From Theionarchaea archaeon (GTDB lineage Archaea; Methanobacteriota_B; Thermococci; Methanofastidiosales; SZ-28-30), in NCBI GenBank assembly GCA_018992685.1, contig JACVGT010000014.1, positions 29,040 through 93,039 on the forward strand: a stretch of 64,000 bases of DNA. Reading direction: 5' to 3'. This document shows, in pieces, positions 3,226-28,776 of the stretch (its first letter is position 1; every line of letters begins with the position of its first letter). The notes under the pieces are model-generated. The model was not told the DNA's origin, did no database searches, and saw only the letters and a list, made by a program, of their open reading frames with translations. The translations under genes and the position numbers were made by a program.

Positions 3226-3322
3226 CTTCAGGAATCGGTCCTGGTATGGAGCTTTCAAGATTCTCTGTGGCATTCATGAAAAGACTTATATAAGGGACTG
3301 CCTGTTTCAAATCTGTGATTCC

Positions 3323-4729: not shown

Positions 4730-4730
4730 T

Positions 4731-8032: not shown

Positions 8033-8932
8033 ATGTATGACGTGGTCATCGTAGGAGGAGGTCCTGCAGGGCTGACGGCGGGAATTTATGCTGCCAGGGC
8101 TCGCCTGGAAACAGCCATTCTGGAGCGGTTGATGCCGGGGGGGCAGGCTGCAGTAACAGATTATATTGAAAACTATCCTGGGTACCCTGAAGGCGTAGCA
8201 GGGCACGAACTGGTGGCAAGAATGCAGGAACAGGCAGAGAAATTTGGATGTCAGATACGGTCAGACGAGGTTGAAGCAGTAGACCTAGGAAAGAGAACAG
8301 TGATCACAGGGTCTGAGAGCTATCTGTGGAAAGCATTGATAATCGCAACAGGAGCAGATCCCAGGACACTAGATGTTCCCGGATGCGCAGCCCTCAAGGG
8401 GAGAGGAATAAGTTTCTGCGCCACCTGTGATGGAGCTCTCTTTTCTGGAAGGCACGTTGCGGTGGTGGGAGGGGGAGATTCCGCTGTGAAAGAGGCCATG
8501 TACCTGACCAAGTTTGCCTCCGAGGTTTTTGTCATCCACAGGAGAGACAAGTTGCGGGCAGAAGGAATTATCCAGGAAAAAGCTTTCAACAATGAAAAAA
8601 TTACCTTTGTATGGGATTCAATAGTCACAGAGATCAAGGGGAACCAGCAGGTAGAGGGAGTTCACATTAAGAATGTGAAAACGGGTGAAGGAAAAGACCT
8701 GGCCGTGAGTGGAGTTTTTGTGTATATTGGCAGGATACCCAATACAGCTATGGTTAATGTTGAAAAAGACAAAGCAGGATACATTATTACAGATTCTGAC
8801 ATGCGCACATCAGTCGAGGGAGTATTTGCGGCAGGTGACTGCAGATCAAAAGAGCATCGTCAGGTGGCGACAGCAGTAGGAGATGGAGCTGCAGCAGCCA
8901 TGTCGGCAGAAGAGTATATTGCCGGCTTTTGA
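8033..8932 (+). CDS. trxB: Thioredoxin reductase
   Basis: N-terminal FAD motif VVIVGGGPAGLTAGIYAAR, redox-active CATC (written CATCDGALF), second dinucleotide motif VAVVGGGDSAV, C-terminal GDC. Start codon abuts the stop of the CoA-binding gene. Confidence 0.85.
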   Translation: MYDVVIVGGGPAGLTAGIYAARARLETAILERLMPGGQAAVTDYIENYPGYPEGVAGHELVARMQEQAEKFGCQIRSDEVEAVDLGKRTVITGSESYLWKALIIATGADPRTLDVPGCAALKGRGISFCATCDGALFSGRHVAVVGGGDSAVKEAMYLTKFASEVFVIHRRDKLRAEGIIQEKAFNNEKITFVWDSIVTEIKGNQQVEGVHIKNVKTGEGKDLAVSGVFVYIGRIPNTAMVNVEKDKAGYIITDSDMRTSVEGVFAAGDCRSKEHRQVATAVGDGAAAAMSAEEYIAGF

Positions 8933-10887: not shown

Positions 10888-13284
10888 CTACTTGCGCCTC
10901 ATCTTGAACCGCACATACATTATGATCAGCAAGAACACCACGAGAATGAGTACACCCGAGGAGACTCTCCTCACCCTCTCCTGTTCAACTTGATTTTGAA
11001 TCCGTGCACTGAGGGTCTCAAATTCTATAATAGTCGTTTTGGCTTTATCTTCAGCTTCCTGGTATTTCCCTTCAATAAAAAGGGCTCTGGCTTCTGCCAG
11101 CAATTCAAGGGCTTGATCTATCTCCTCTTCAAGTGCTGTGGTGTTAACATTCAGTTGTTGGGCCTCTTCCAGAGCCAGGGGGATTTTTGAGTAGCTTCTC
11201 TTGGCCTCAGCGATACTCTGCCTGGCTGTCTCCCTGTTCTGCATTTCTTTTTCTGCTCGTTCCTGTTCCAGCAAATAATAGGTTGAAATGACTGCAGCAT
11301 TATCCCCCATGTTGTAAATTTCTGTGAGCAGCTCGTCAGTGAGAGCCAGTCGGTAGGTATACGCAATATAGAATCCTCCCCACAAGGAATTGTCGAGCGA
11401 TGACTGAGGATACGCACCCACACTGGTGATCCCATTGTTATAAGCAACAATTAAGGAATTAATTAAGTTCTCCCGGGCTGGAGGTGCAGGAGATTCAACG
11501 TAAAAACTCAGGATGTACTTTGAGGGAGTAGGGAGGCTCTTTACTATGTATTCTACGCGAGGTGGGTTTTGAAGACCGATGTTGATCAGGACAATCCGGT
11601 CAACGATATCTTCCACCTCTGGGAGGTACAACCCGTACTCAGAAGAAGCAAGTTCCAAGTTGGCAGAAACTGGGACCTCCACCCACAATTCCTTGTTGGA
11701 ATCGCGTATAAGTTCCCTGAGGTCCCGCAGAAACTGGGAAAGCAGACTGGTCTTCCATTCTCTCACGGTTGGATCATAAATATTGATGCTGCCATCTGTC
11801 CTGGGCCAGTCTTCTACAGGGACACCTTTCTGAGCCATGTAATCAATATAGGATTGCAGGCAATCAATACAGAAACAGTCTTCCAGATAGTACAGTTGAG
11901 TAACAAGGATTGCTTCTGCATCATAATTGTTTGCTAGATACGTGACCATTTCAAAGAATTCTGTTTTATAAGGGTCCTGGATGAGTGCTGTGAGACATAT
12001 TCTCTTTCTCAGGACTCCCCACTCAAACGTTACAGAAGCTGAATCTTTATATCTGGTTGCAAATTCCTCGGACTGGGCATTGACCTGCAGGACACCGTAC
12101 AGATTGGCATTCCGTGCCTTGGAGATCATCTCATCAACATAATCTCGATCATATTTCTGTATGTAGGCACTCCACTTGTCGGGATAGGGCCAATACTTGA
12201 AGTATGTTGAGAACACGTGACCTGCCGGCAGAACAGCTGTGTTGACCTCGTAGCTTCTCCACTCTTCCATATTGTACTGATTGTTAAAGAACTCAATAAA
12301 GGTCAATCGAGTCATCCGAATGTCTTCAAAGGGAATTTGAGCCTTCTTTATGCGTTCGAAGTCCTTTCTCTGCCAGGCATCAGAATCAAAGATGAGCATA
12401 TCTGCATACGTACTCTCAGCCACCTGAGCTCTGGCATTGCTGACGTAGTCATCAGGAATGATGACGTACACTCCTGCTTTGGTCAACAACGTCAGCCTGT
12501 TGATGAGCGGAGTCGGGTTAGCCTCAGTCTGAACAGCCACAAAGGTAGCTACTCCCGGAGGCACATACTCTGCATCCTGATCTTGCAGTTCTTCAGGGAT
12601 GACTGTCACACCCACAGGCAGGTCTTGAGGCATAATGTCACGCAGAAAGTCAGAAAGGACTTCATTCCGGTAGGAGAGCCAGTCATACCAGAGGGGGGTA
12701 TTGCGTTCTTTTTCAAGCGATAGGTCAATGGAACCCATGTTATACCCGTATCGCTGCCCAAAATTGGCCTTTAATTCATCACTGGCAGCAAAATCATCAG
12801 GAAACCACAGATAATCGAAAAGTATCCCATCAATTGGATATGCTGTTACCTCATTCATCATGATTGTGTAGTACTGTCTCGATTTCAGAGGAGAGATCCA
12901 GTATTCTTTTGTGGCCATGTTCTGTTCCGCAAGCCACCTGTCATACAAGAGAGGAATCCACGCATACACCTTGATATTCTGATCATGTGCCTTCTTCAGA
13001 GTCTCATCAAGCACATCAAACTCGGACTTAACAAGGCTCCTGGGACTATTGTAGTACACCAGTCCTGAATCTGGTCCAGTGTCCTGCTTTATCATGAGAA
13101 AAATGTAGGAAACTCCATATTCTGCGCACAAATTCACAATAGAATCTATGTCTGCCTTTGTCTGTATAATATCATGGGGACGCACAAAGATCGCCAGAGG
13201 TAGATCAGTTGGTAATGATGCCGAAGGTGTGGGAATCATGGCAAGGCCCAATACAATGAGGAAGAGTACTGCAGCTCGATTCAT
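10888..13284 (-). CDS. Large secreted protein: signal peptide, TIM-barrel-like glycoside-hydrolase-like domain (GHL10/DUF187-like), long coiled-coil stalk, C-terminal TM anchor
   Basis: N-terminal signal peptide (MNRAAVLFLIVLGLAMIPTPSAS). Central region resembles the YngK/GHL10 family. C-terminal ~150 aa is heptad-rich (EKEMQNRETARQSIAEAKRS ... QVEQERVRR), followed by a hydrophobic anchor and a KMRRK tail. Confidence 0.35.
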   Translation of the reverse strand: MNRAAVLFLIVLGLAMIPTPSASLPTDLPLAIFVRPHDIIQTKADIDSIVNLCAEYGVSYIFLMIKQDTGPDSGLVYYNSPRSLVKSEFDVLDETLKKAHDQNIKVYAWIPLLYDRWLAEQNMATKEYWISPLKSRQYYTIMMNEVTAYPIDGILFDYLWFPDDFAASDELKANFGQRYGYNMGSIDLSLEKERNTPLWYDWLSYRNEVLSDFLRDIMPQDLPVGVTVIPEELQDQDAEYVPPGVATFVAVQTEANPTPLINRLTLLTKAGVYVIIPDDYVSNARAQVAESTYADMLIFDSDAWQRKDFERIKKAQIPFEDIRMTRLTFIEFFNNQYNMEEWRSYEVNTAVLPAGHVFSTYFKYWPYPDKWSAYIQKYDRDYVDEMISKARNANLYGVLQVNAQSEEFATRYKDSASVTFEWGVLRKRICLTALIQDPYKTEFFEMVTYLANNYDAEAILVTQLYYLEDCFCIDCLQSYIDYMAQKGVPVEDWPRTDGSINIYDPTVREWKTSLLSQFLRDLRELIRDSNKELWVEVPVSANLELASSEYGLYLPEVEDIVDRIVLINIGLQNPPRVEYIVKSLPTPSKYILSFYVESPAPPARENLINSLIVAYNNGITSVGAYPQSSLDNSLWGGFYIAYTYRLALTDELLTEIYNMGDNAAVISTYYLLEQERAEKEMQNRETARQSIAEAKRSYSKIPLALEEAQQLNVNTTALEEEIDQALELLAEARALFIEGKYQEAEDKAKTTIIEFETLSARIQNQVEQERVRRVSSGVLILVVFLLIIMYVRFKMRRK

Positions 13285-16942: not shown

Positions 16943-17911
16943 TCATTCCACAAGACTCTGTTCTTCCTCACCCTCAATGTAGTGAAGGACGCCAATGGCC
17001 TGACTAAATTTGTCTATCATGCCGCTGGTTTTCATGAATTGAAGCGTTGCTGAAAGATCAGTGAAGGTGAGATCTGACTTGATGCTCAGCCACACCAGCA
17101 ACCCTTCCTCGGTATGGGTACAGACAGTACTGGTAGGAAGGTTTGAGAGGAGTGCAATTACTGCGTCAGTGTATCCAGTTCTGAGGAGGAACACAAAGTG
17201 AGTGTAGTTGAGATAGCCATCAGGGTAGAACCTCATGAGGACAGTCGTATGGTTACAGACAGTTTCTAGCCACTGGTAAAACTTGTCAGATGAGATCAAA
17301 TGTTTTCTCAACGCAGGAGTGACTTTCTTTCTGAAATCATATTCATATTCATAAAACAGTTTCCATTCTTCTTCATCCCAGGAGGGAGGTTCATGGACAG
17401 GCAACCCCACCTTTTCAAGACCATTGGGCTCAAACTCGTGTGCCTGACTCTTCATTCGCTTGAAAGCTGGAATCCAATCAGTGAGAGGGACCCGGGGAGT
17501 AGTGATGTCTCCTCGTACTCCCTGGAACAATAAGTATTCAAATCCTTCAATGTGAGAGGGGTCATATTTCCCGTCTGAAATGTACATGATGTTCCAGTCT
17601 CCTAGGAACAAGCTACAATAGTCGATCTGAGGAATCTCTCTTAGCTGTTCAAATGCATTGTTTGGATCATCAAACTTGACGAGATGAAAGTATTTATTTA
17701 GTCCGGGATAGTATTCAAGTCTCAATTCTGGTCCAAACAGTATCTGAGAATCATACATATGATCTAAATAGCTGGAAACTGTATTTCGTGCCATTTTAAC
17801 ATTCTTAGAAATCTCATGAACGTGTACTCTGGGATTTACATATATTTGATTATATATAGCATGGTATCTTCTCAATTTCTCCTTTCTTGTAAGTTTGCTC
17901 ATATAACTCAT
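16943..17911 (-). CDS. Orphan hypothetical protein with an N-terminal helix-turn-helix (putative DNA-binding protein); rest has no recognisable family
   Basis: 322 aa. Residues ~25-60 (VHVHEISKNVKMARNTVSSYLDHM) look like a classical HTH. Isolated by long AT-rich intergenic regions on both sides. Confidence 0.4.
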   Translation of the reverse strand: MSYMSKLTRKEKLRRYHAIYNQIYVNPRVHVHEISKNVKMARNTVSSYLDHMYDSQILFGPELRLEYYPGLNKYFHLVKFDDPNNAFEQLREIPQIDYCSLFLGDWNIMYISDGKYDPSHIEGFEYLLFQGVRGDITTPRVPLTDWIPAFKRMKSQAHEFEPNGLEKVGLPVHEPPSWDEEEWKLFYEYEYDFRKKVTPALRKHLISSDKFYQWLETVCNHTTVLMRFYPDGYLNYTHFVFLLRTGYTDAVIALLSNLPTSTVCTHTEEGLLVWLSIKSDLTFTDLSATLQFMKTSGMIDKFSQAIGVLHYIEGEEEQSLVE

Positions 17912-18029
17912 CCCAACATTAATATAGTACTTCTTCGTAGCTATGTACGTCCATATCGCATATGGACCGATGTATAGGCTATGTCCCTAAGCTATAAATA
18001 CCTTTCGGCACGGATCTTTCACCCCCTTC

Positions 18030-18056
18030 GAGACCGGTTGTTCTACAACCGGTCTC
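18030..18056. promoter_or_regulatory. Perfect palindrome GAGACCGGTTG-ttcta-CAACCGGTCTC (11-bp arms) in the 5' region of the HTH gene
   Basis: Exact inverted repeat about 120 bp upstream of the HTH gene start (minus strand) and about 320 bp upstream of hdrC. Confidence 0.6.
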
Positions 18057-18376
18057 CCAAACACGACAAACACGCTTTTTTAAACACGTTTTTCTTTCCT
18101 TTTTCTAATCAACTCAACATGTCCACTCTTTCGTGATAATATTTTATTAGGTTCCTTCTGGACGCCTCCAGAGGGTGTTCTCCTGACCTTTCCAGATAGT
18201 GCACACCGTTTCAATGTCTTCCCTATGTCTCGACTACCTTCTCGAAATATATTTACACATTTTCTACAGAAAAAACTATATAAACTAAAAGGCTAAGATT
18301 TATAAATGTAAAGGAAGACTAAACCTTTGACCTCAAAGCCAAAGAAAAAGAAAAATGTACTTGAAGGAGCGAGAGA

Positions 18377-18880
18377 ATGAAAAAGAAGGAAATTATCAAC
18401 ATGGACGAACTGGATCCCCAATTCAAGTATGAGATCGCTTCCCAACCAGGAGGAGAGCACATACTGAAATGTGTGCAGTGTGCTACTTGTTCCTCTGGTT
18501 GTCCTGTGGCTTCTGTGAGTGACAGATTCAACCCACGGAAAATTATCCGAATGGCAGTCCTGGGACTGAAGGATACAGTCCTGAGAGAGGATTTTGTCTG
18601 GTACTGTGCTGCCTGTTACACATGCTCTGAACGCTGTCCCCAGGACGTGAGAATTCCTGACCTCATGGCGGCTGTCAGGAACATCGCAGTCAAAGAGGGA
18701 TGCATTCACCCTGCCTACAAAGAACAGGGGCGATTAATAGGGGAACTGGGACGATTGTATGAAGTGACTGAATTTGAGAATGAGAAAAGGGAGAAGCTTG
18801 GCCTTCCCAAAGTGAGAGAGAAGAATGAAGAAATAGCTGAAATTTACAGCTGCACTGGTGTAGGAAAGGTGGTGCTGTGA
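18377..18880 (+). CDS. hdrC: Heterodisulfide reductase subunit C
   Basis: Two Cx2Cx2Cx3CP ferredoxin motifs (CVQCATCSSGCP; CAACYTCSERCP) in a ~165-aa protein, directly followed by hdrB. Confidence 0.85.
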   Translation: MKKKEIINMDELDPQFKYEIASQPGGEHILKCVQCATCSSGCPVASVSDRFNPRKIIRMAVLGLKDTVLREDFVWYCAACYTCSERCPQDVRIPDLMAAVRNIAVKEGCIHPAYKEQGRLIGELGRLYEVTEFENEKREKLGLPKVREKNEEIAEIYSCTGVGKVVL

Positions 18881-19752
18881 AGTATGCATTGTTTTTAGGT
18901 TGTACTGTTCCAGTGAGAACCATGGCGTACGAAATTTCCACCAGAAATGTCATGAAAAAACTGGGGATCTCTCTTGCAGACTTGGAAGATTTCGGCTGCT
19001 GCGGATTTCCTTTAGAATCTATTGATCATACTACCTATTTGTCAGTGGCTGCGAGAAATCTGGCCGTTGCAGAAGCTGCCAACCTGCCTGTGATGACCAT
19101 GTGCAGTGCCTGCAATGGGTCTCTCCTCAAAGCCAACCTGGCCATGCAGGACAAGAATACACGAGATGAAATAAATGCCAACCTAAAGCCCATTAATCGG
19201 CAGTACAAGGGGACTACGGTTGTAAAGCATGCGGCCAGGGTACTATATGAGACCATGGACACCATAAAGGAGATGGCACATCCCCTGAACCTGAAGGTTG
19301 CTGCTCACTATGGATGCCATTACACTAAACCCTCCGAAATATATGCGGATTTCGAAGACCCCGAAGTCCCCTACAGTCTGGAGGAGCTCATCTCTGCAGT
19401 CGGAGCAACACCTATTCCGTACGAGAATAAAAAACAGTGCTGTGGAGGGTCTGTCATGGGAATTGATGAGAGTGTTTCTCTGGAGATGGTACGAGAGAAA
19501 CTATCTCACATCAAGAAAGCAGGAGCAGATGCCATGGTCCTGGTATGCCCGTTCTGTGATGTCATGTATGACATAAATCAGAAACGGATTGAAAATCAGG
19601 CTGGAGAACAATTCGGTATTCCTGTGCTGTTCCTGCCCCAGCTGATAGGACTGGCCCTTGGACTGACACCTGACGAATTAGGGCTGAAAATGAACAGAGT
19701 ATCAGTGCGCAATCTGCTGAAGACCCTGGGTGACGGCAATGAGCAAAAGTGA
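18877..19752 (+). CDS. hdrB: Heterodisulfide reductase subunit B (two CCG domains)
   Basis: Cysteine-rich CCG motifs (DFGCCGFPL; KKQCCGGSVMG) and overall HdrB length. 4-nt overlap with hdrC. Confidence 0.9.
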   Translation: MKYALFLGCTVPVRTMAYEISTRNVMKKLGISLADLEDFGCCGFPLESIDHTTYLSVAARNLAVAEAANLPVMTMCSACNGSLLKANLAMQDKNTRDEINANLKPINRQYKGTTVVKHAARVLYETMDTIKEMAHPLNLKVAAHYGCHYTKPSEIYADFEDPEVPYSLEELISAVGATPIPYENKKQCCGGSVMGIDESVSLEMVREKLSHIKKAGADAMVLVCPFCDVMYDINQKRIENQAGEQFGIPVLFLPQLIGLALGLTPDELGLKMNRVSVRNLLKTLGDGNEQK

Positions 19753-21721
19753 ACCTCGAATCGGAGTGTATGTGTGCCATTGCGGCTTGAACATTGGTGC
19801 AGTTGTGGATGTTGCTGCTGTGGCTCAATATGCCCAGACGCTTCCTGGCGTGGTGGTTTCAAGAGAATCAACCTACACATGCAGCGACAATGGTCAGAGA
19901 TCTATCCAGGAAGACATCGAGAACCACAACCTGAGTCGGGTGGTGGTGGCTTCCTGCAGTCCGCGCATGCATGGCGATACCTTCATGAAGACCTGTGAGA
20001 CTGCAGGGCTGAACCCGTACCTTTTTGAGATGGTCAATATCAGAGAGCAATGTTCATGGGTGCACACTGATAAAGAACAGGCCACAGAGAAGGCCAAAGA
20101 CTTGGTGAGAATGGCAGTTGCCAAAGTACGATTACTGGAACCCTTAGAAAAGCAGAAATCTGCCGTCAACAAGGCTGCACTGGTGATTGGAGGAGGAGTG
20201 GCCGGTATTTTCTCTGCTTTGTACCTGGCAAATGCAGGAATTAAAACATACGTTGTTGAGAAAAAGCCGTCTATTGGAGGACACATGGCTCAACTGGACA
20301 AGACATTCCCCACCCTGGACTGTAGTCTGTGCATTCTTTCTCCAAGAATGGCAGATATAGGAAAACATGAAAATATCGAACTCATTACCTATGCAGATAT
20401 TGAGAATATTTCAGGATACGCGGGGAATTTTCAGGTTACGGTGAAAAGCAACCCACGCTATGTCATAAAGGAGAACTGCCGACTGTGCGGTGTGTGTGCG
20501 GAAAAATGTCCTATCTCGCTGCCCGATGAGTTCAACATGGGATTGAAGAAAAGGAAAGCAGTGTACATACCTTTCCCGCAGGCAGTTCCGAATTACTACC
20601 TCATCGATGCTGGTCACTGTTTACACATTACCAAGGGAGGATGCATGCTGTGCCAGAAAAACTGTCCCAATGATGCCATTGATTTTGAAGAGACAGAAGC
20701 AGTGAGAGAGCTCAATGTGGGCGCCATCATTGTGGCCACGGGATTTGAGCTGTATGATGCTACCCAGAAGAAGGAGTACGGATACGGGAGGTATCCCAAT
20801 GTCATCACCAACATGGACTTCGAAAGGTGGGTGAGTGCAGATGGCCCTACCCACGGCAAGGTTGTGAGGCCTTCAGACGGAGCCCCCCCTCAGAGGATTG
20901 GGTTCATCCAGTGTGTCGGATCCCGAGACGAGAAGGAGGGAGCAGTCTACTGCTCTCGTATCTGCTGCATGGCAACGGTAAAGCAGGCCACGATGCTCAG
21001 GGAGAAGTACCCCTCAGCTGAAATATATGTGTACTACACTGACATGCGAACTCCTGGCAAAGGGTTTGAAGAATTTTACCAGAGAGGACGTGAGCATGGG
21101 ATTGTATTCATCAGAGGAAAGCCAGGGGAAATTGAAGAAGATGACAATCACAATCTCCTTATCGTGTCAGAGGACACCGATTCCGGGCTCATCCTGCGCA
21201 ACACCTTGGACCTTGTGGTGTTGGCATGTGGACTTCGGCCACCTGAGGCGTTGGAAGAACTTGCACAGAAGTTGCATTTATCGCGAAGCCCTGACGGATT
21301 CATTATGGAGGCGCATCCCAAATTGCGTCCTGCAGAAACAAGTATCTCTGGAGTATTCCTGACTGGATGTGTTCAATTCCCCAAAGATATTCCAGATACG
21401 GTGGCACAATCAGGAGGAGCCGCCGCTATGGCCGCGGCCCTGTTGACGAAAGATGAGATCGAACTTGAGCCAGTAAGGGCAGCGGTGGACGAAGAACTGT
21501 GTATCGGGTGTGGATTGTGCGAGGAAAACTGCGACTATGGGGCCATTGAGGTAAAGAAAACAGAAGAAGGAATGAAGGCCCAGGTCATTGAAGTAGCCTG
21601 CCAGGGATGCGGTGTCTGTGCAGCCAGCTGTCCTCAGAAAGCAGTGACAGTCCGTCACTTCACAGATGGTCAGCTGCTGGCCCAGGTCACTGCTGCTCTA
21701 GAACCTGAGGTGATCGTGTGA
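19739..21721 (+). CDS. hdrA: Heterodisulfide reductase subunit A (canonical domain order)
   Basis: N-terminal Cys cluster domain (IGVYVCHCGLNIG ... ASCSPRMHG), FAD motif LVIGGGVAGIFSAL, inserted ferredoxin (CRLCGVCAEKCP / CMLCQKNCP), GPKDIPDTVAQ region, C-terminal 2x[4Fe-4S] ferredoxin (CIGCGLCEENC / CQGCGVCAASCP). Confidence 0.9.
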   Translation: MSKSEPRIGVYVCHCGLNIGAVVDVAAVAQYAQTLPGVVVSRESTYTCSDNGQRSIQEDIENHNLSRVVVASCSPRMHGDTFMKTCETAGLNPYLFEMVNIREQCSWVHTDKEQATEKAKDLVRMAVAKVRLLEPLEKQKSAVNKAALVIGGGVAGIFSALYLANAGIKTYVVEKKPSIGGHMAQLDKTFPTLDCSLCILSPRMADIGKHENIELITYADIENISGYAGNFQVTVKSNPRYVIKENCRLCGVCAEKCPISLPDEFNMGLKKRKAVYIPFPQAVPNYYLIDAGHCLHITKGGCMLCQKNCPNDAIDFEETEAVRELNVGAIIVATGFELYDATQKKEYGYGRYPNVITNMDFERWVSADGPTHGKVVRPSDGAPPQRIGFIQCVGSRDEKEGAVYCSRICCMATVKQATMLREKYPSAEIYVYYTDMRTPGKGFEEFYQRGREHGIVFIRGKPGEIEEDDNHNLLIVSEDTDSGLILRNTLDLVVLACGLRPPEALEELAQKLHLSRSPDGFIMEAHPKLRPAETSISGVFLTGCVQFPKDIPDTVAQSGGAAAMAAALLTKDEIELEPVRAAVDEELCIGCGLCEENCDYGAIEVKKTEEGMKAQVIEVACQGCGVCAASCPQKAVTVRHFTDGQLLAQVTAALEPEVIV

Positions 21722-22458
21722 CATTTTCTCCTAGGATTGTAGGGTTCATGTGTAACTGGTGTTCGTATGCAGGAGCTGATCTGGCTGGAATTTCGAGGAT
21801 AAAATATGCTCCCAATCTGAGGATTATCAGAGTGCTGTGTTCCGGGCGAGTTGACCCTTACGTAGTTCTGACCGCATTCCAAAAGGGTGCAGACGGCGTT
21901 CTGGTTGCAGGGTGCCACCCTGGAGACTGCCACTACATATCAGGGAACTACCAGGCAGAAAAGAAAATGAAAGCGACATGGAAGATATTGAGCAAAGCAG
22001 GGATTGATCAAGAAAGACTGGGACTGGAATGGATTTCTGCAGCAGAAGGTCAGCGATTTGCTGACGTTGTCAACTCGTTTACTCAACTGATTACTGAGTT
22101 GGGACCGCTTCAGGCTGATCCGCAGAAGATTGCCTCGGCCAAGGAAGAGACTGCAGATTTCAGAATTAGGTGGCTGGTGGGAAGAGAAAAAGACTTGCTG
22201 GAAGAGGGAAATGTGTTTGGCGAACCTGTAGAAGAAGCAGTGTTTGAGACCCTTCTGGATGATGTTGTTTCTGCCCAATACATCAGGAATTCTATTCTCA
22301 CCGTGCTCAAGGAACAGTCTATGTCAGCCAAAGAACTGGCAGAAACTCTTGAAATTCCTTCTCACGTGGTTGTGGAGCATTTGATTCACCTGCGGAGAGG
22401 GCAGAAGGTGCACATGGTTGAAGGTCATCCCATTCGGTACGAGGTGAGCGCATGGTAG
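21718..22458 (+). CDS. mvhD: MvhD-like [2Fe-2S] electron-transfer protein fused to a C-terminal winged-helix-like domain
   Basis: Residues 1-135 are MvhD (VGFMCNWCSYAGADLAG ... VAGCHPGDCHYISGN). An extra ~110 aa tail contains an HTH-like stretch SMSAKELAETLEIPSHVVVEHLIHLRRGQKV. GTG start overlaps the hdrA stop (GTGA). Confidence 0.8.
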   Translation: MTFSPRIVGFMCNWCSYAGADLAGISRIKYAPNLRIIRVLCSGRVDPYVVLTAFQKGADGVLVAGCHPGDCHYISGNYQAEKKMKATWKILSKAGIDQERLGLEWISAAEGQRFADVVNSFTQLITELGPLQADPQKIASAKEETADFRIRWLVGREKDLLEEGNVFGEPVEEAVFETLLDDVVSAQYIRNSILTVLKEQSMSAKELAETLEIPSHVVVEHLIHLRRGQKVHMVEGHPIRYEVSAW

Positions 22459-25421
22459 GTTCCATAATGGTTGTAGGAGGAGGAATTGCAGGAATGCAGG
22501 CCTCCCTGGATCTGGCAGATTCTGGATTTCGAGTATACCTGGTGGATAAAGCACCCACTATTGGTGGAGTGATGGCTCAGCTGGACAAAACCTTCCCCAC
22601 ACTGGACTGCTCCATGTGTATCATGGCTCCCAAGCTCGTGGCCACCGGGAGGCACCACAATATCCATCTGCTTACCAATGCAGTGATCACCAATGTGGAG
22701 GGAACCCCAGGCAACTTCACCGTAACGGTGACAATGAAGCCCCGTTACGTAAACGCGGAGAAATGCACAGGATGCGGACTGTGTGCCCAGTACTGCCCTG
22801 TAGAAGCAGTAAATGAATATGATGAACGACTGACGTTGCGCAGAGGTATCTACGTGGACTATCCTCAGGCAGTCCCGTTGGTATATGCGATAGACAGAGA
22901 GAAGTGCATTGGATGCGGATTGTGTGAGAATATTTGCCAGGCTGAAGCCATTGAATATCATCAGACTCCTGAAGAAGAACAGGTGAATGTAGGTGCCATT
23001 ATTCTGGCGGCAGGATTTGACGAATTTGAACCTGATACCAAGAAGGAATATGGGTACGGCAGGTTCAAGAATGTGGTGACTGCCACTGAATTCGAGCGCA
23101 TCCTCAGTGCTTCAGGTCCCTTTGCAGGACACGTGGTGAGGCCTTCTGATGGTGAAGTCCCGGGGAGAATAGCATTCTTGCAGTGCGTGGGGTCCAGAGA
23201 TGAAAACAGCAACAAGTATTGCTCTGCCGTGTGCTGCATGTATGCCACAAAGGAAGCTATTATTGCCAAAGAACACAACCCCGACCTTGAGGCAACAATC
23301 TTTTTCATGGACATGCGTACCTACGGGAAAGGGTTTGAACAGTTCTACAAGAGAGCCCAGTCTGAATACGGTCTCAGATACACGAGAAGCCGCGTCCCCT
23401 GTATTGAAGCAGACCCCGAAACTCAAAACCTCCTTCTTACCTATGAAACAGAAGATGGTACCATAACTAAAGAAGAATTTGACATGGTGGTCCTCTCAGT
23501 GGGGTTGGAGCCGCCAAAATCCAATCAAGAGCTGAGCAGCATTTTCGGTGTTCCTCTGAATGAATATGGGTTCCTAGACTGGAAAATATTTGAACCCCTC
23601 AAGGCAAAGGACGGCATATATGCATGCGGAGCCTTCTCTGGACCAAAAGACATTCCTGATACTGTGGCGCAGGCATCAGGAGCAGCAGCTATGGCATCAG
23701 GCGTAGTCTCCGGAGAACGGGGCACTCTCGTGGAAGAAAAGGTCTATCCTGAGGAGCTGGACGTTGCGGAACAGCCGCCCCGAATTGGTGTTTTCGTGTG
23801 CTGGTGCGGTATCAATATAGGTGGCATTGTCAATGTGCCCGAGGTGATGGAGTATGCCTCCACCCTCCCCAATGTGGTGTTCGTCGACCAGAATCTGTAT
23901 ACATGTTCACAGGATACGCAGGAGAAGATCAAACAGGCAGTGGAAGAGCACAGCCTGAACCGTGTGGTTGTTGCGTCCTGTACACCGCGAACACACGAAC
24001 CGCTGTTCCAGAGCACTATTCGGGAAGCTGGGCTGAACCCGTATCTCTTTGAGATGACAAACATTAGAGACCAATGTTCCTGGGTTCACATGCACACTCC
24101 AGAAGAAGCTACAGAAAAGGCAAAGGACCTGGTGAGAATGGCGGTAGCCAAATCCAATCTACTGGAGCCATTGAAGAGTTCGTCAGTTGAGGTCACTCAG
24201 TCTGGACTGGTCATTGGAGGCGGTATTGCGGGAATGACAGCAGCTCTGGGCCTGGCTCAACAGGGATTCACTGTCCACCTGGTAGAAAAGGAGGATCATC
24301 TGGGAGGGCTGCTGCGTGACATACGCTACACGGTGAGCGGGGAAGACCCCCAGGAGTATTTGACAGGTCTGGAACAGAGTCTCAGAGATCATCCCAATGT
24401 CACCATCCACACACAAGCAGTTGTGGAGAAAGTTGAGGGATATGTGGGGAACTTCACCACCACACTGTCCTCAGGAGAGGAAATCAACCATGGAATCTGC
24501 GTTATAGCTGTAGGAGGGCAAGAGCACAAGCCCACCAGTTATCTGTATGGCGAGGACAAGAGAGTCATCACCCAGCTGGAATTTGAGGATATGCTCTCCA
24601 AAGGAGTGAAGGCCAAGACTGTGGTGATGATAAATTGTGTGGAATCCAGAGATGACACCAAGGAATACTGCTCCAGGGTATGCTGTTCAGAAGCTGTGAA
24701 AAATGCTTTACAGCTGAGAGAACAGAATCCAGACGCAACCATATATATTCTGTACAGGGACATGAGAACCTACGCGTTCAGAGAGCAGTACTATGACAAG
24801 GCACGGGAAGCAGGTGTCGTATTCATGAGGTATGATCCAGAGACAAAACCTCGACTGGAAAAGAAAGACAAATCGTTGGTGTTATACGCGCACGATTCTG
24901 CTCTGGATCTTGACTTTGAACTGCATCCCGACCTGGTTGTACTGTCTACAGGAGTATCTCCCTATGACAACTCAGCGCTCTCTCAGATGCTCAAAGTCCC
25001 TCTTGACAGAGACGGGTTCTTCTTGGAAGCCCACATGAAACTGCGCCCGGTGGATTTTGCCACAGACGGGGTATTCATGGCAGGGCTGGCACATTCTCCC
25101 AAGTTCATTGATGAGACGATTTCTCAGGCTTTTGGAACAGTTGCCCGGGCTTGTACCATCGTCTCAAAAGAGAGAATAGAGACAGAGCCAATCATTGCAG
25201 AAGTTGATGAAGAACTCTGCTGCGGGTGCCAGGTATGTATACCAATGTGCCCGTATAATGCACGTGAATTAGATGAGGAGGAGAAGATAGTCAAGGTCAA
25301 CGAAGTGCTCTGCAAAGGGTGCGGTTCGTGTGTTGCTGCATGTCCCTCCAAGGCAGCTCAGCAGAGACACTTCCGTGACAGCCAATTAAGTTCCATGATT
25401 GAGGCCTTTGTGAGGCGATAA
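22452..25421 (+). CDS. Large (989 aa) HdrA-like flavoprotein with permuted and duplicated domains: FAD domain with inserted ferredoxin, HdrA N-domain-like Cys cluster, second FAD domain, C-terminal ferredoxin
   Basis: Two Rossmann FAD motifs (MVVGGGIAGMQASL at residue ~6; LVIGGGIAGMTAAL at ~580). HdrA N-domain-like segment in the middle (IGVFVCWCGINIGG ... ASCTPRTHE ... NIRDQCSWVH). Ferredoxin CxxCxxCxxxC motifs after FAD domain 1 and at the C-terminus. Confidence 0.8.
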   Translation: MVGSIMVVGGGIAGMQASLDLADSGFRVYLVDKAPTIGGVMAQLDKTFPTLDCSMCIMAPKLVATGRHHNIHLLTNAVITNVEGTPGNFTVTVTMKPRYVNAEKCTGCGLCAQYCPVEAVNEYDERLTLRRGIYVDYPQAVPLVYAIDREKCIGCGLCENICQAEAIEYHQTPEEEQVNVGAIILAAGFDEFEPDTKKEYGYGRFKNVVTATEFERILSASGPFAGHVVRPSDGEVPGRIAFLQCVGSRDENSNKYCSAVCCMYATKEAIIAKEHNPDLEATIFFMDMRTYGKGFEQFYKRAQSEYGLRYTRSRVPCIEADPETQNLLLTYETEDGTITKEEFDMVVLSVGLEPPKSNQELSSIFGVPLNEYGFLDWKIFEPLKAKDGIYACGAFSGPKDIPDTVAQASGAAAMASGVVSGERGTLVEEKVYPEELDVAEQPPRIGVFVCWCGINIGGIVNVPEVMEYASTLPNVVFVDQNLYTCSQDTQEKIKQAVEEHSLNRVVVASCTPRTHEPLFQSTIREAGLNPYLFEMTNIRDQCSWVHMHTPEEATEKAKDLVRMAVAKSNLLEPLKSSSVEVTQSGLVIGGGIAGMTAALGLAQQGFTVHLVEKEDHLGGLLRDIRYTVSGEDPQEYLTGLEQSLRDHPNVTIHTQAVVEKVEGYVGNFTTTLSSGEEINHGICVIAVGGQEHKPTSYLYGEDKRVITQLEFEDMLSKGVKAKTVVMINCVESRDDTKEYCSRVCCSEAVKNALQLREQNPDATIYILYRDMRTYAFREQYYDKAREAGVVFMRYDPETKPRLEKKDKSLVLYAHDSALDLDFELHPDLVVLSTGVSPYDNSALSQMLKVPLDRDGFFLEAHMKLRPVDFATDGVFMAGLAHSPKFIDETISQAFGTVARACTIVSKERIETEPIIAEVDEELCCGCQVCIPMCPYNARELDEEEKIVKVNEVLCKGCGSCVAACPSKAAQQRHFRDSQLSSMIEAFVRR

Positions 25422-25423
25422 CC

Positions 25424-25834
25424 ATGTATGAACCAAAAATTATCGGATTCTTGTGTAACTGGTGTTCATATGCAGCTGCAGATCTGGCGGGGACTTCCAG
25501 GATACAGTATCCATCCAACATGAGAGCGATCCGGGTTATGTGTTCCAGCAGGGTGGACCCTGAACATGTGCTGCGGGCATTTGTCAACGGCGCAGACGGC
25601 GTTCTGATTGCAGGATGTCACCCCGGTGACTGCCACTACATCTCAGGTAACTACAAAACAGAAAGGAAATATGTGCTGCTGCGCGAGATGTTGGAGCAGT
25701 TCGGCATTGACCCACGCAGGCTGAGGCTGGAGTGGTGTTCTTCTGCTGAAGGTGGAAAGTTCGCGCAGGTAGTGACGGAGATGACTGAAGAACTGAAAAC
25801 TCTTGGACCAATAGAACTGGGAGCTGGTGATTGA
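25424..25834 (+). CDS. mvhD: MvhD, [2Fe-2S] subunit of F420-non-reducing hydrogenase (stand-alone copy)
   Basis: 136 aa: IIGFLCNWCSYAAADLAG ... IAGCHPGDCHYISGNY. Confidence 0.9.
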   Translation: MYEPKIIGFLCNWCSYAAADLAGTSRIQYPSNMRAIRVMCSSRVDPEHVLRAFVNGADGVLIAGCHPGDCHYISGNYKTERKYVLLREMLEQFGIDPRRLRLEWCSSAEGGKFAQVVTEMTEELKTLGPIELGAGD

Positions 25835-26809
25835 ATGGATAAGCTAAAGTTTGCTTTCTATTGGGCCGCCTCTTGCGGCGGCTGTGAAATCGCTGTTCTG
25901 GATATTGATGAGAAGATACTGAATGTCGTTGAAAAAGCAGACATTGTCTTCTGGCCAGTGGCACTTGACACCAAGTACAAAGATGTAGAGGCATTCCAAG
26001 ACAAGTACATTGATGTGTGTTTCTTCAATGGTGCTATTAGAACCAGCGAACATGAGGAAATGGCCCATCTGCTCCGTGCGAAATCCAAGACATTGGTTGC
26101 ATTTGGAGCCTGTGCCTGTTTTGGAGGAATACCAGGGCTGGCCAATGTTTCTGACAGAGACGAGATCTTTGATCTGGTATACAGAGAGTTACCGTCCGTA
26201 TCCAACCCGGACAAGACGACACCTCAGCTCACCTACACAGCTCCCGAGGGGGAGTTGACTCTCCCACAATTCTTCGATACAGTCAAGGCTCTACACCAGG
26301 TCTGTGACGTAGATTACTTTTTGCCTGGGTGTCCTCCCACCCCGGAGATGATCGAACAGGCGGTTACTGCGATTTTTGAGGGAACTCTACCTTCAAAAGG
26401 AAGTACCTTAGCACCTGAAAAAGCGTTGTGTGAAGAGTGCCCCTTGGAAATCCAAGAGAAAAAAATCCCTTTTATCAAGCGCCCCTACCAGGTCACACCT
26501 GATGGAAAAAGGTGCCTGTTGGAACAGGGTGTCATTTGTATGGGCATCAATACCAGAGCAGGGTGTGGAGCCAGGTGCATCAAAGCCAACATGCCGTGCA
26601 GAGGATGCATGGGTCCGACTCCTGAGGTGGCTGATCAGGGAGCAAAACTGGTATCTGCCATTGCTTCCATTCTGGGTGTGGAAGGAGAAGAACGCATGAC
26701 GGAAAAGGAAATTGAAGCCCTGATAGCCCAGATAAAGGATCCACTCGGAACATTCTACCGGTACACCTTACCAATTTCTCTGTTAAGAAGAAAGGTGATA
26801 AAAAAATGA
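25835..26809 (+). CDS. mvhG: [NiFe]-hydrogenase small subunit MvhG
   Basis: N-terminal proximal-cluster motif YWAASCGGCEIAVLD, GACACFGG, and the CPPTP region typical of group 3c small subunits. Confidence 0.85.
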   Translation: MDKLKFAFYWAASCGGCEIAVLDIDEKILNVVEKADIVFWPVALDTKYKDVEAFQDKYIDVCFFNGAIRTSEHEEMAHLLRAKSKTLVAFGACACFGGIPGLANVSDRDEIFDLVYRELPSVSNPDKTTPQLTYTAPEGELTLPQFFDTVKALHQVCDVDYFLPGCPPTPEMIEQAVTAIFEGTLPSKGSTLAPEKALCEECPLEIQEKKIPFIKRPYQVTPDGKRCLLEQGVICMGINTRAGCGARCIKANMPCRGCMGPTPEVADQGAKLVSAIASILGVEGEERMTEKEIEALIAQIKDPLGTFYRYTLPISLLRRKVIKK

Positions 26810-28260
26810 ATCGAGTTACCATTAATCCTATCACTCGCCTGGAAGGGCATGGTAAAATTGAGATATTCCTTGATAGCAAGGGAAATGTGGAGAATGCCTA
26901 TCTGCAGATTCCTGAATTGCGCGGATTTGAACGGTTCTGCCAAGGAAGGCCTGGGGAGGAACTGCCCAGAATTACTCCTCGAATCTGTGGTGTGTGTCCC
27001 ACTGCTCATCACATGGCATCTGCAAAAGCACTGGATGCAGCCTTTAATGTGGAGCCGACACCCACTGCTAAGAAATTGAGAGAACTCATGTATGCAGGAT
27101 ACTATGTATATGATCACACTCTTCACTTCTACTATCTGGGTGGTCCTGACTTCATTGTGGGGCCTCAAGCCCCGGCTGCAGAACGAAATATTCTTGGCGT
27201 TATCAACAAGGTGGGACTTGACATTGCAAAAGAAGTGATCAAGCACAGAAGCTACGGACAAAAAGTCATTGAAATCCTGGGAGGAAAAGCCACTCATCCT
27301 GTTTCAGCACTCCCGGGAGGGATATCTAAAGGGCTGACAGAAGAGGAAAGGGCCAGCATTGAAGAAATGGCCAGGTCTTCTGTCAAGTTTGCAGCGTTTT
27401 CTCTAGAAACCTTTGACAACATTGTCCTCAAGAACAAGGAATATGTTGATTTGATTACTTCAGATGCCTATACCATGAGAACATATTACATGGGGCTTGT
27501 TGACGAGAACAACAAGGTCAACTTCTACGATGGAAAGATAAGAGTTGTGGATCCCACTGGGAAGGAGTACATCAAGTTTGATGCTTCAGACTACCTCACA
27601 CACATTGCAGAACATGTGGAACCCTGGTCGTACATCAAATTCCCTTACCTGAAAGGGGTAGGATGGAAAGGGTTTGTAGATGGCGTAGACTCTGGAGTGT
27701 ACCGGGTTGCCCCATTGGCAAGACTCAATGCTGCACAGGGAATGGCCACACCATTGGCCCAGGAAGCATATGAGAAGATGATGGAAACGCTGGGTTCCCC
27801 TGTCCACCATACGCTTGCCACACACTGGGCCCGCCTCATTGAGCTTCAATATGCAGCAGAACGCCTGCTGGAGTTGGCCCAGGATGAAGACATCACTTCC
27901 AAAGACATACGAGCTGAGCCGGGAGAACCCGGTGAAGGAGTGGGGGTTGTCGAAGCAGCTCGTGGAACCTTATTCCATCATTACAAGCTGGACAAAGACG
28001 GGCTCGCCGAAAGTGTCAACCTCATAGTTGCCACCGTAAACAATGGACCCGCCATAAACATGTCAGTAAGAGATGCAGCAAAAGGACTCATAAAAGAGGG
28101 TAAGGTATCTGATGGGTTGCTGAACATGGTAGAAATGGCCTTCAGGTCATATGACCCCTGCTTTGGCTGTGCTACCCATTTCCTCCCTGGAGAAATGCCA
28201 CTACAGGTGAGAATTCACAGAATCGACGGAACAGTTCAAACTCTTGAACGGAATCTCTAA
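26806..28260 (+). CDS. mvhA: [NiFe]-hydrogenase large subunit MvhA
   Basis: N-terminal RICGVCPTAHH (RxCGxCxxxH) and C-terminal DPCFGCATH (DPCxxCxxH) nickel-ligand motifs. About 26 residues follow the C-terminal His. Confidence 0.9.
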   Translation: MNRVTINPITRLEGHGKIEIFLDSKGNVENAYLQIPELRGFERFCQGRPGEELPRITPRICGVCPTAHHMASAKALDAAFNVEPTPTAKKLRELMYAGYYVYDHTLHFYYLGGPDFIVGPQAPAAERNILGVINKVGLDIAKEVIKHRSYGQKVIEILGGKATHPVSALPGGISKGLTEEERASIEEMARSSVKFAAFSLETFDNIVLKNKEYVDLITSDAYTMRTYYMGLVDENNKVNFYDGKIRVVDPTGKEYIKFDASDYLTHIAEHVEPWSYIKFPYLKGVGWKGFVDGVDSGVYRVAPLARLNAAQGMATPLAQEAYEKMMETLGSPVHHTLATHWARLIELQYAAERLLELAQDEDITSKDIRAEPGEPGEGVGVVEAARGTLFHHYKLDKDGLAESVNLIVATVNNGPAINMSVRDAAKGLIKEGKVSDGLLNMVEMAFRSYDPCFGCATHFLPGEMPLQVRIHRIDGTVQTLERNL

Positions 28261-28290
28261 TCTCTTTTTTCCTCTGTTTTCTTATTCAAT
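28261..28290 (+). terminator. Oligo-T terminator-like tract after mvhA (tctcttttttcctctgttttcttattc)
   Basis: Consecutive T-runs directly after the last gene of the hdr/mvh cluster. Confidence 0.45.
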
Positions 28291-28374: not shown

Positions 28375-28776
28375 ATGGTACAAAAACACTGGACAGCGAT
28401 GTTTCGATGGCATGAATTCAGACCAGATGAGAAGGGAATTGAGAAGGTGTTGAGCCCTCTGGAATCTGAGATCATGCAGATTATGTGGGATGAGAAGATA
28501 TCTGTGGCTCGGGATATCTATGAGATCATGAAAAAAAAGGAAAAGAAGACCCGCAGATCTACAATCAGCATCATGATGAACCGGCTGCGCGAACGGGGGC
28601 TTCTGGAGAGACAGCCGGAGACAGGAAAAGGGGGAGAACGATATGTCTACACCGTCAGAGTAACACGGGAAGAGTTTTCCCGTGCAGTGGTGGAAAAGGT
28701 AATGAGCAGTCTCACAGAAGCGTTCCAGGATGCCACGGTGAGGTATGTGAGAAACCATCTTTCTGATAAGATTTAA
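28375..28776 (+). CDS. BlaI/MecI/CopY-family winged-helix transcriptional repressor
   Basis: LSPLESEIMQIMWDE ... STISIMMNRLRERGLLERQ ... YVYTV matches the Penicillinase_R wHTH pattern. No BlaR1-type sensor or copper ATPase adjacent. Confidence 0.6.
   Translation: MVQKHWTAMFRWHEFRPDEKGIEKVLSPLESEIMQIMWDEKISVARDIYEIMKKKEKKTRRSTISIMMNRLRERGLLERQPETGKGGERYVYTVRVTREEFSRAVVEKVMSSLTEAFQDATVRYVRNHLSDKI

Follow-up and report, generated by a model that had tools for sequence, protein, structure and literature searches.

An eight-gene hdr–mvh operon of a theionarchaeon pairs a complete HdrA with a fused HdrA and an extended MvhD, and may encode a modular multi-flavin complex

A stretch of 64,000 nucleotides from an uncultured, sediment-dwelling Theionarchaea archaeon (assembly GCA_018992685.1, contig JACVGT010000014.1, positions 29,040 to 93,039; hereafter the window) carries eight genes for subunits resembling the [NiFe]-hydrogenase MvhADG and the heterodisulfide reductase HdrABC of methanogens. 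Two of the encoded proteins depart from the methanogen set. The larger of two HdrA proteins, HdrA_L, is by its domain content a fusion of two complementary half-HdrAs, and the first of two MvhD proteins, MvhD-wHTH, ends in a winged helix-turn-helix (wHTH) domain. We favour, at roughly even probability, a reading in which the operon encodes a single modular multi-flavin hydrogenase:disulfide reductase supercomplex with two HdrA-type flavin modules in series, as suggested by the sequences and by analogy to a bacterial benzoyl-CoA reductase. The features of the operon, in positions of the window, are as follows.

18277-18284 and 18299-18306 (+): putative archaeal promoter with two TATA-like boxes, TATATAAA and TTTATAAA, 71-100 nt 5' of the hdrC ATG (sequence reading)
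18377-18880 (+): hdrC, 167 aa (Pfam, NCBIfam)
18877-19752 (+): hdrB, 291 aa (Pfam, NCBIfam, PDB)
19730-21721 (+): hdrA_S, 663 aa, type I HdrA (NCBIfam, PDB, ligand table)
21718-22458 (+): mvhD-wHTH, 246 aa (Pfam, alignment, AlphaFold2, Foldseek)
22452-25421 (+): hdrA_L, 989 aa, type II (fused) HdrA (PDB match, residue table, tree)
25424-25834 (+): mvhD2, 136 aa, short and tail-less (Pfam, identity)
25835-26809 (+): mvhG, 324 aa, [NiFe]-hydrogenase small subunit (Pfam, NCBIfam)
26806-28260 (+): mvhA, 484 aa, group 3c-like [NiFe]-hydrogenase large subunit (NCBIfam, PDB, motifs)
28261-28290 (+): T-rich tract TCTCTTTTTTCCTCTGTTTTCTTATTC directly 3' of the mvhA stop, likely an archaeal terminator (function inferred)

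According to the list of open reading frames (ORFs), the eight genes are collinear on the plus strand at 18377-28260 in the order hdrC-hdrB-hdrA_S-mvhD-wHTH-hdrA_L-mvhD2-mvhG-mvhA. The gene junctions measure, in order, -4, -23, -4, -7, +2, 0, and -4 nt, and a Shine-Dalgarno-like GGTG/GAGG motif precedes every internal start. Both TATA-like boxes are kept in two close syntenic relatives, the loci L081 and L082, which share the flanking genes of the window. Because the genes overlap, a single promoter-like region precedes them, and an oligo-T tract ends them, they form one operon by all sequence criteria.

Subunits were assigned by Pfam and NCBIfam profile matches with E-values from 1e-11 to 0. 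HdrC matched Fer4_8 (Fer4 dicluster, 1e-11) and TIGR03290 CoB_CoM_SS_C (1.3e-33) and carries two [4Fe-4S] motifs, i.e., CxxCxxCxxxCP twice. HdrB matched CCG (two stretches, 3.3e-26) and TIGR03288 CoB_CoM_SS_B (1.9e-83), and its top PDB match is HdrB itself (5odc_B, 1.1e-69); both of its CCG motifs are complete (C9, C41C42, and C76xxC79; C147, C188C189, and C224xxC227). MvhG matched Oxidored_q6 (1.2e-25) and VhuG (3e-67), and MvhA matched NiFeSe_Hases and VhuA (1.3e-131), with MvhA 5odc_F as the top PDB match (4e-125). MvhA shows the motifs RICGVC...DPCFGCATH, followed by a 26-aa C-terminal extension that needs cleavage.

The remaining window was surveyed with Pfam on about 60 ORFs picked by eye from those of at least 110 aa. 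Neither a HycI protease nor a polyferredoxin was found among them, and CxxCxxCxxxC motifs in the window are confined to hdrC and both hdrA genes. The protease for the MvhA extension must therefore lie elsewhere; in one relative from the Bathyarchaeia, the gene directly 3' of mvhA is hycI. The sequence-only reading, which had described the eight-gene string with neither mvhB nor a maturation protease in the window, is thus borne out by the ORF list, the subunit assignments, and the survey. Its label, an MvhADG/HdrABC-type complex, holds for the subunit types. As a name for the enzyme it denotes resemblance, because all NCBIfam equivalog scores stay under the curated cut-offs (bits/cut-off: HdrA2 942/1100 for HdrA_S and 1029/1100 for HdrA_L, HdrB 280/345, HdrC 116/160, VhuA 439/800, VhuG 227/450, and VhuD 128 and 139/215 for the two MvhDs). 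It also correctly counted two HdrAs and two MvhDs, but overlooked that HdrA_L fuses two half-HdrAs and that the first MvhD is extended by a wHTH. In NCBI, HdrA_L and MvhA are 100% identical to MBU7015559.1 and MBU7015562.1 of a Theionarchaea archaeon, and the annotation of the operon genes is generic only.

For a comparison of cofactor ligands, both HdrAs were aligned to the Methanothermococcus HdrA of PDB entry 5ODC, with the reference reconstructed from the alignment. HdrA_S (NCBIfam HdrA2, 2.3e-283) aligns over its full length to PDB chains 8rvu_a and 5odc_A, with 53% identity to the latter. It comprises an N-terminal iron-sulfur (FeS) domain, a thioredoxin-reductase-like flavin adenine dinucleotide domain (TrxR/FAD) with the C198/C201 pair, an inserted ferredoxin domain, and a C-terminal ferredoxin domain. 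Its ligands are complete, including the N-terminal cysteines, the pair that is C194/C197 in 5ODC numbering, four HA4 cysteines, and eight cysteines in each ferredoxin domain, inserted and C-terminal. E365 and K418 correspond to E356 and K409 of 5ODC HdrA, and equivalents of these two residues are found in all three TrxR domains, i.e., in HdrA_S and in both halves of HdrA_L. Judged by domains and ligands, HdrA_S is a complete type I HdrA.

A different build is seen in HdrA_L. The HdrA2 model matched it with E = 0 in three stretches, the match to PDB HdrA likewise falls into three pieces, and two TrxR/FAD domains are marked by GxGxxG motifs at residues 8-13 and 588-593 (Pfam Pyr_redox_2 in three stretches). 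The N-terminal half (residues 1 to ~432) contains a TrxR/FAD domain, the C53/C56 pair, the inserted ferredoxin domain, HA4, E215, and K267, and has neither the N-terminal domain nor the C-terminal ferredoxin domain. The C-terminal half (residues ~433-989) contains an N-terminal FeS domain, the second TrxR/FAD domain with HA4, the C-terminal ferredoxin domain, E712, and K750, and lacks the Cys pair and the inserted ferredoxin domain. By this inventory, HdrA_L is a fused pseudo-heterodimer of two complementary half-HdrAs and, following the classification of PMC12054007, a type II HdrA of the A6-A12 fusion kind. In the model of PMC13580544, a mobile arm of N- and C-terminal domains, MvhD, and donor feeds the flavin of the partner protomer via the Cys pair, and low-potential electrons exit via HA3 to the partner's inserted ferredoxin domain. 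Under that model, one HdrA_L polypeptide would contain a single complete bifurcation track, with one FAD and one HA4 to spare. Its C-terminal half would supply the mobile arm with its N-terminal cluster domain and C-terminal ferredoxin domain, and its N-terminal half would supply the flavin site, the Cys pair, HA4, and the sole inserted ferredoxin domain. PDB searches for a solved type II HdrA or BamE/BamF structure matched type I HdrA and sHdrA chains alone.

The same architecture has been described before. A self-complementing fused HdrA was noted by Chadwick et al. 2022 (PMC9012536), where HdrA3/4 and the tandem HdrA5/6 of anaerobic methanotrophic archaea (ANME) correspond to HdrA_L. The type II classes A3/A4 (Lyu et al. 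2025, PMC12054007) likewise fuse an A6-like to an A12-like half, with the N-terminal domain and Cys197 complementary between halves. It also describes co-clustering of type I and type II HdrAs and proposes that low-potential electrons of the type II protein may be re-bifurcated by the co-clustered type I protein. The A3/A4 clusters it describes combine FdhB with a non-catalytic molybdopterin protein (F420H2) in Mcr-containing archaea, whereas the window combines HdrA_L with a [NiFe]-hydrogenase in a non-methanogenic lineage. For A3/A4 or ANME HdrAs, the parts read of PMC12054007 and PMC9012536 mention neither a wHTH adaptor nor its strict pairing with type II HdrA.

The two HdrAs belong to different old classes. 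HdrA_S is 45% identical to the N-terminal and 40-50% identical to the C-terminal half of HdrA_L, and the halves share 30-35% identity with one another. Neighbour joining of 78 HdrA units gave a crude, distance-based tree without bootstrap. In it, HdrA_S fell among the canonical type I HdrAs, to which the PDB protein also belongs, the N-terminal half of HdrA_L grouped with type II N-terminal halves beside class A6, and the C-terminal half grouped with type II C-terminal halves beside class A12. A recent duplication of HdrA, which the sequence-only reading had named as a finding that would count against it, or of MvhD is ruled out by these identities, by 61% identity between the MvhD domains, and by the separate clades. 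HdrA_L itself is strongly conserved, with 78-94% identity to its closest homologues and 52-61% to those in other phyla.

Both MvhDs matched FlpD (1.5e-53 for MvhD-wHTH and 8e-57 for MvhD2), and MvhD-wHTH is about 110 aa longer, with a C-terminal extension of about 115 aa. Residues 1-130 form a normal MvhD [2Fe-2S] domain with the conserved Cys, His, and Asp. In a 35-sequence alignment, the following helical linker is conserved, with R151, E157, and N165-V-x-G invariant, and residues ~186-246 form the wHTH (Pfam PF0610-like_N/HTH_20). A confident AlphaFold2 model (predicted local distance difference test score 83.7, predicted template-modelling score 0.75) shows the MvhD fold, the helices, and the wHTH. 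In Foldseek, the N-terminal part matched the MvhD/ElpC chains 5odc_D, 8rvu_F, and 7bkb_F (~1e-12), and the tail matched Zalpha and ArsR-family wHTH proteins (NolR and HlyU, ~1e-2). A phmmer search with the tail alone returned 139 clusters at E <= 1e-3 from 1.84 billion representatives. Many of the matches carry the tail at the C-terminus of proteins of ~200-300 aa, and in those scanned with Pfam it is preceded by FlpD; others are stand-alone or partial proteins of 100-140 aa, besides a few longer fusions. The wHTH of MvhD-wHTH has an isoelectric point (pI) of 7.2 and the whole tail one of 5.1, and the family-wide median for the wHTH is 9.1. The BlaI-like gene downstream of the operon (28375-28776) was considered as a detached MvhD tail and rejected for want of significant similarity.

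A genome scan with HdrA_L gave at least 589 relatives, of which the best 80 are full-length, 52-60% identical, and come from Bathyarchaeia, Thermoplasmata/Methanomassiliicoccales, Asgard archaea, 'Methanobacteriota' metagenome-assembled genomes (MAGs), and several bacterial groups. For synteny counts, ORFs of 82 related loci were classified against the eight proteins of the window. The recurrent layout is (hdrC hdrB) - HdrA unit - MvhD-wHTH - type II HdrA - short MvhD - (hdrC hdrB) - donor genes. In these loci, gathered mostly with HdrA_L as query, a type II HdrA lies directly 3' of 82 of the 84 MvhD-wHTH genes, and an HdrA lies directly 5' of 80 of the 83 that have an upstream neighbour in the locus. 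The classes at this 5' position are A12 (36), type II (22), Bathyarchaeia 'Cf' (13), unclassified HdrA (9), and type I (2), and few of the sampled loci share the form of the window, whose first unit is a complete type I HdrA. The pairing of MvhD-wHTH and type II HdrA recurs across archaea and bacteria. The gene 3' of the type II HdrA encodes a tail-less MvhD in 75 cases, an MvhD-wHTH in 22, and an HdrC-like protein in 6, so the tailed MvhD is the form seen where another type II HdrA comes next. Three further loci, found from MvhD-wHTH proteins (L083, L084, and L085), all have a type II HdrA directly downstream. A usable rule for annotation is that, where an MvhD of ~250 aa carries a wHTH, the next gene downstream can be predicted to encode a type II HdrA.

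The unit of MvhD-wHTH and type II HdrA can be repeated. One to four such stages occur in single operons, with up to four chained type II units in one of them (L035) and up to three MvhD-wHTH copies per operon in relatives. L082 (6298-12964) contains an additional unit whose tandem type II HdrAs are 95% identical and hence a recent duplicate; its second MvhD-wHTH, which lies between them, is divergent (48.5% identity to the first). L081 (3291-17133) adds NuoE- and NuoF-like genes, which have no counterpart among the scanned ORFs of the window, as well as a 1074-aa 2Fe-2S-HdrA fusion, an FdhA-like protein, FdhB, and a third MvhD. In both relatives, the additions and exchanges of modules fall at the same operon positions, which we count in favour of a modular supercomplex.

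Natural fusions point to the partners of each protein. In one locus, an 810-aa ORF fuses HdrA to MvhD-wHTH, with a type II HdrA next downstream. Type II HdrA-MvhD fusions of ~1155 aa occur among the sampled loci, and such fusions have also been reported in PMC11237513. A Thermoplasmata locus (L016, 2784-4379) encodes a 531-aa MvhD-HdrC-HdrB triple fusion after its type II HdrA. Stand-alone ArsR-like homologues of the tail (~130 aa) lie between mvhD and mvhG in Thermoplasmata (L016 13449-13832; L007 13479-13871), and three further Thermoplasmata loci (L043, L011, and L077) were grouped with these two for the triple fusion and the stand-alone homologues. MvhD domains cluster by the donor gene that follows them. 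MvhD2 is 87-88% identical to the mvhG-adjacent MvhDs of L081 and L082, an orthogroup always found beside mvhG, and this identity holds in L081 even though fdhB lies upstream of its mvhG-adjacent MvhD. The bam gene order in Geobacter we take to be bamE-bamF-bamGHI, and the order in class I methanogens is mvhDGAB (PMC13580544). From the fusions, the grouping of MvhDs, and these gene orders, the simplest grammar reads: acceptor side, HdrA, MvhD adaptor, donor module.

Other loci fill the ends of this scheme with other modules. In L045, an Asgard locus, FrhB-like and FNR/PyrK-like genes, i.e., other donor modules, come after the terminal MvhD in place of a hydrogenase; this Promethearchaeia MAG also encodes an actin-family protein (19256-20401, Pfam Actin 1.5e-132) about 6 kb from the hdr cassette. 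A Halobacteriota MAG (L083, 1990-12180) has MetV and MetF at the acceptor end, followed by a 1463-aa HdrA fusion, MvhD-wHTH, type II HdrA, and MvhD. There and in L025 and L026, which are Syntrophaceae/delta proteobacterium MAGs, the cassette of MvhD-wHTH, type II HdrA, and MvhD follows NfnB/GltD-like-HdrA fusions of 1460-1510 aa. This gene content suggests NAD(P)H-linked and methylene-tetrahydrofolate/tetrahydromethanopterin-linked versions of the cassette.

Among solved structures, the closest precedent for such an arrangement is the class II benzoyl-CoA reductase of Geobacter metallireducens, described in a cryo-EM preprint (10.64898/2026.04.10.717634, the source of the statements in this paragraph on its subunits). 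It joins two energy-coupling flavin modules in one supercomplex. BamE is a fused HdrA dimer with one bifurcation track, in which the flavin of the first TrxR domain bifurcates and that of the second does not, and BamF exceeds the usual length of an MvhD adaptor by more than 100 aa and attaches to the input module BamI through its wHTH. BamDEF follows the same gene grammar as the window, i.e., HdrA, MvhD-wHTH, and donor module, and by its architecture MvhD-wHTH may be regarded as a BamF-like adaptor, with HdrA_L in the place of BamE. The systems also differ. The BamF wHTH docks a NuoEFG/HydABC-like donor, whereas here the docked donor would be another HdrA. In the second TrxR domain of BamE a Gln replaces the flavin-N5 Lys, whereas HdrA_L keeps Lys and Glu at both sites (K750 and E712 in the C-terminal half). 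BamF has a selenocysteine where MvhD-wHTH has Cys, and the tungsten-containing BamBC that are part of the reductase, as well as NuoEFG-like BamGHI, were absent from the scanned ORFs of the window.

Taken from operon grammar, fusions, and the BamE/BamF structure, the favoured assembly would work as follows; of its basis, the domain content and ligands, the structure of the operon, and the synteny were read directly from the data. Each MvhD would serve as an adaptor that links the HdrA encoded upstream to the electron-donor module encoded downstream. MvhD2 would couple MvhGA to the arm of HdrA_L, and MvhD-wHTH would sit on the arm of HdrA_S, its wHTH docking HdrA_L as donor module. Electrons would pass from H2 via MvhA/G and MvhD2 to the FAD of HdrA_L, on via MvhD-wHTH to the FAD of HdrA_S, and then through HdrC and HdrB to a disulfide, while low-potential electrons would leave for ferredoxin through an inserted ferredoxin domain. 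Reverse operation (confurcation) is also conceivable. The pairings implied by the fusions leave HdrBC-HdrA_S-MvhD-wHTH without a donor and HdrA_L-MvhD2-MvhGA without a disulfide reductase, so both would be complete only when joined. The specific version in which bifurcation proceeds serially at both flavins we consider rather doubtful, and it is speculation that two stages in cascade would bring lower potentials within reach when H2 pressures in sediment are low. That the unit of MvhD-wHTH and type II HdrA is a general stackable stage, so that low-potential electrons feed the next bifurcation in an HdrA cascade (a voltage multiplier), is a similarly tentative and rather improbable proposal.

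Several points weigh against a single supercomplex. Its basis is comparative throughout, and the likeness to BamF and BamE was drawn from descriptions, not from sequences. The synteny counts are biased by the HdrA_L query, and the check from the MvhD side comprises three loci. About 19 of 101 type II HdrAs away from contig edges have no MvhD-wHTH upstream, so a type II HdrA can work alone. One hdrCB pair is present here, compared with two in many Bathyarchaeia. Finally, three properties of the MvhD tail would suit DNA binding, i.e., a classical wHTH fold with NolR, HlyU, and Zalpha as structural neighbours and a HTH_20/PF0610-like profile match, the basic family-wide median pI, and the stand-alone ArsR-like homologues in Thermoplasmata operons.

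The sequence-only reading had left two options, alternative HdrA-MvhD modules or a larger supercomplex. The synteny, the fusions, and the BamF/BamE precedent lean to the latter. The former, two separate or alternative complexes from one co-transcribed operon, is a possible outcome that we hold to be distinctly less probable than an even chance. HdrA_S would then form a canonical (MvhAGD-HdrABC)2 complex, for which it has every feature of the classical homodimeric core, and HdrA_L a second enzyme that either shares the hydrogenase and HdrBC as an isoenzyme for other conditions or serves a partner encoded elsewhere. Type II HdrAs can be self-sufficient cores, as in MetFV-HdrABC-MvhD of Moorella thermoacetica (PMC9012536) and in BamDE (10.64898/2026.04.10.717634), and the type II HdrAs that lack an upstream MvhD-wHTH, the single hdrCB and mvhGA pairs, and the similarity of the MvhD domains, which might make them interchangeable, fit this view as well. 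It leaves unexplained, however, why MvhD-wHTH and type II HdrA are adjacent almost without exception and why the tail is missing precisely where something other than an HdrA gene comes next. Furthermore, the pairings supported by fusions leave each of the two complexes one branch short, and chains of up to four units in one operon would be odd for mere isoenzymes.

The tail of MvhD-wHTH could instead bind DNA, making the protein a [2Fe-2S] redox-sensing autoregulator, perhaps besides a structural role; this would be compatible with the single supercomplex, and we consider it unlikely. In addition to the fold, the basic family median, and the stand-alone homologues, conserved palindromes upstream of hdrC (see below) speak for it. 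However, the wHTH is neutral here and the whole tail acidic, as part of the operon the gene is translationally coupled, it occurs in multiple copies per operon in relatives, and BamF, the sole solved homologous adaptor, uses its wHTH for protein docking (10.64898/2026.04.10.717634). The palindromes could also be served by the wHTH gene at 28375-28776 or the candidate regulator gene at 16943-17911, which flank the operon. Equally unlikely is a vestigial methanogenic MvhADG-HdrABC that still reduces the heterodisulfide of coenzymes M and B (CoM-S-S-CoB), with HdrA_L as a minor paralogue: HdrA_S, HdrB, and MvhA are closest in the PDB to methanogen enzymes and Theionarchaea are of methanogen descent, retaining Ehb and the Wood-Ljungdahl pathway (PMC9635834), but nothing would regenerate the heterodisulfide because Mcr and Mtr are reported lost (PMC9635834), the equivalog scores are all below cut-off, the cassette also occurs in non-methanogenic Bathyarchaeia, Asgard archaea, and bacteria, and HdrA_L, strongly conserved and with all cofactor ligands, fits a decaying paralogue poorly.

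Compared with the methanogen complex (PDB 5ODC; Mvh-Hdr-Fmd supercomplex, PMC13580544), the window shares all six subunit types and their cofactor ligands, the MvhD His/Asp and HdrA Cys-pair residues with a suggested role in flavin electron transfer, and the order mvhD-mvhG-mvhA. It differs in that hdrA and mvhD are separated by genes for MvhD-wHTH and a fused type II HdrA, in that the two HdrAs and two MvhDs are of differing architecture, and in the absence of the mvhB polyferredoxin. CoM-S-S-CoB is a doubtful substrate here, as Theionarchaea reportedly lack Mcr (PMC9635834). The scanned ORFs of the window include none for Mcr or for coenzyme M/B biosynthesis. Moorella thermoacetica, likewise not a methanogen, combines MvhD and HdrBC with a fused double HdrA (PMC9012536); it has one HdrA together with MetF/MetV, whereas the window has two HdrAs, and neither MetF nor MetV was found in it.

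Flavin bifurcation by HdrA is the core energy coupling of hydrogenotrophic methanogens, and many archaea that are not methanogens also carry several hdrA and mvhD genes. This locus is the simplest hydrogenase-linked example of the repeating cassette of extended MvhD and fused HdrA. If the cassette joins two bifurcating modules, the coupled-bifurcation principle of benzoyl-CoA reductase would extend to H2 metabolism of the deep biosphere and would help to explain low-potential ferredoxin without methanogenesis. If the cascade exists, energy-starved sediment anaerobes could reduce ferredoxin at very low donor concentrations; its users would be Theionarchaea, Bathyarchaeia, Asgard archaea, Thermoplasmata, and some bacteria, with H2, formate, F420H2, or NAD(P)H as donors. 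The window would then hold the hydrogenase-driven two-stage form, and the operon order would spell the electron path: acceptor, HdrA, adaptor, donor. Type II HdrA, the idea of serial bifurcation, and multi-copy hdrA-mvhD clusters in Asgard/TACK archaea are already published (PMC12054007, PMC9012536, and PMC11237513). Three points appear undescribed in the literature searched, i.e., the strict pairing of MvhD-wHTH with a downstream type II HdrA, the stackable modular use of MvhD-wHTH with many donor modules, and, in a non-methanogenic lineage, the combination of type I and type II HdrA driven by a hydrogenase.

Regarding the region upstream of the operon, a non-coding block of ~140 nt (17935-18080) lies between hdrC and a divergent ORF (16943-17911). 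It is ~95% identical in L081 and L082, compared with only 75-80% identity for their proteins, and contains two palindromes with 3-nt spacers, GTCCATAT-CGC-ATATGGAC (17949-17967) and GAGACCGGTTGT-TCT-ACAACCGGTCTC (18030-18056). In the latter, a double change in L082, from T:A to C:G, preserves the pairing. Between the palindromes is a CTATAAATA box, and a T-run follows. The block is a candidate operator region or small RNA; a search against Rfam gave no match at E <= 1. The divergent minus-strand ORF (322 aa) has no Pfam match, and its 317-aa counterpart in L082 shows a faint HTH_24; such an unannotated ORF of 313-322 aa precedes the operon in the window, L081, and L082, the likeness being one of size and position. 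A BlaI/Penicillinase_R-type wHTH gene (28375-28776, +) just downstream of mvhA flanks the operon in all three as well. Both genes are candidate regulators.

Elsewhere, the window contains archaeal genes for diphthamide synthase, PCNA, GINS, aIF2-alpha, and the exosome. Aconitase X serves the archaeal mevalonate pathway, and genes for its large and swivel subunits are located at 45764-47520 (-). A tRNA at 45421-45527 (+), missed by ARAGORN, was detected with Rfam RF00005 (53.4 bits), and its length of 107 nt is probably due to an archaeal intron. Two separate pairs of TldD/PmbA-family metallopeptidase genes lie at 3077-6056 (+) and 57641-60396 (-), and two large ORFs, at 715-3225 (+, 836 aa) and 10888-13284 (-, 798 aa), had no Pfam match at E <= 1e-4. 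At 7634-8932 (+), a gene for a CoA-binding protein is directly followed by one for a 299-aa thioredoxin-reductase-like flavoprotein.

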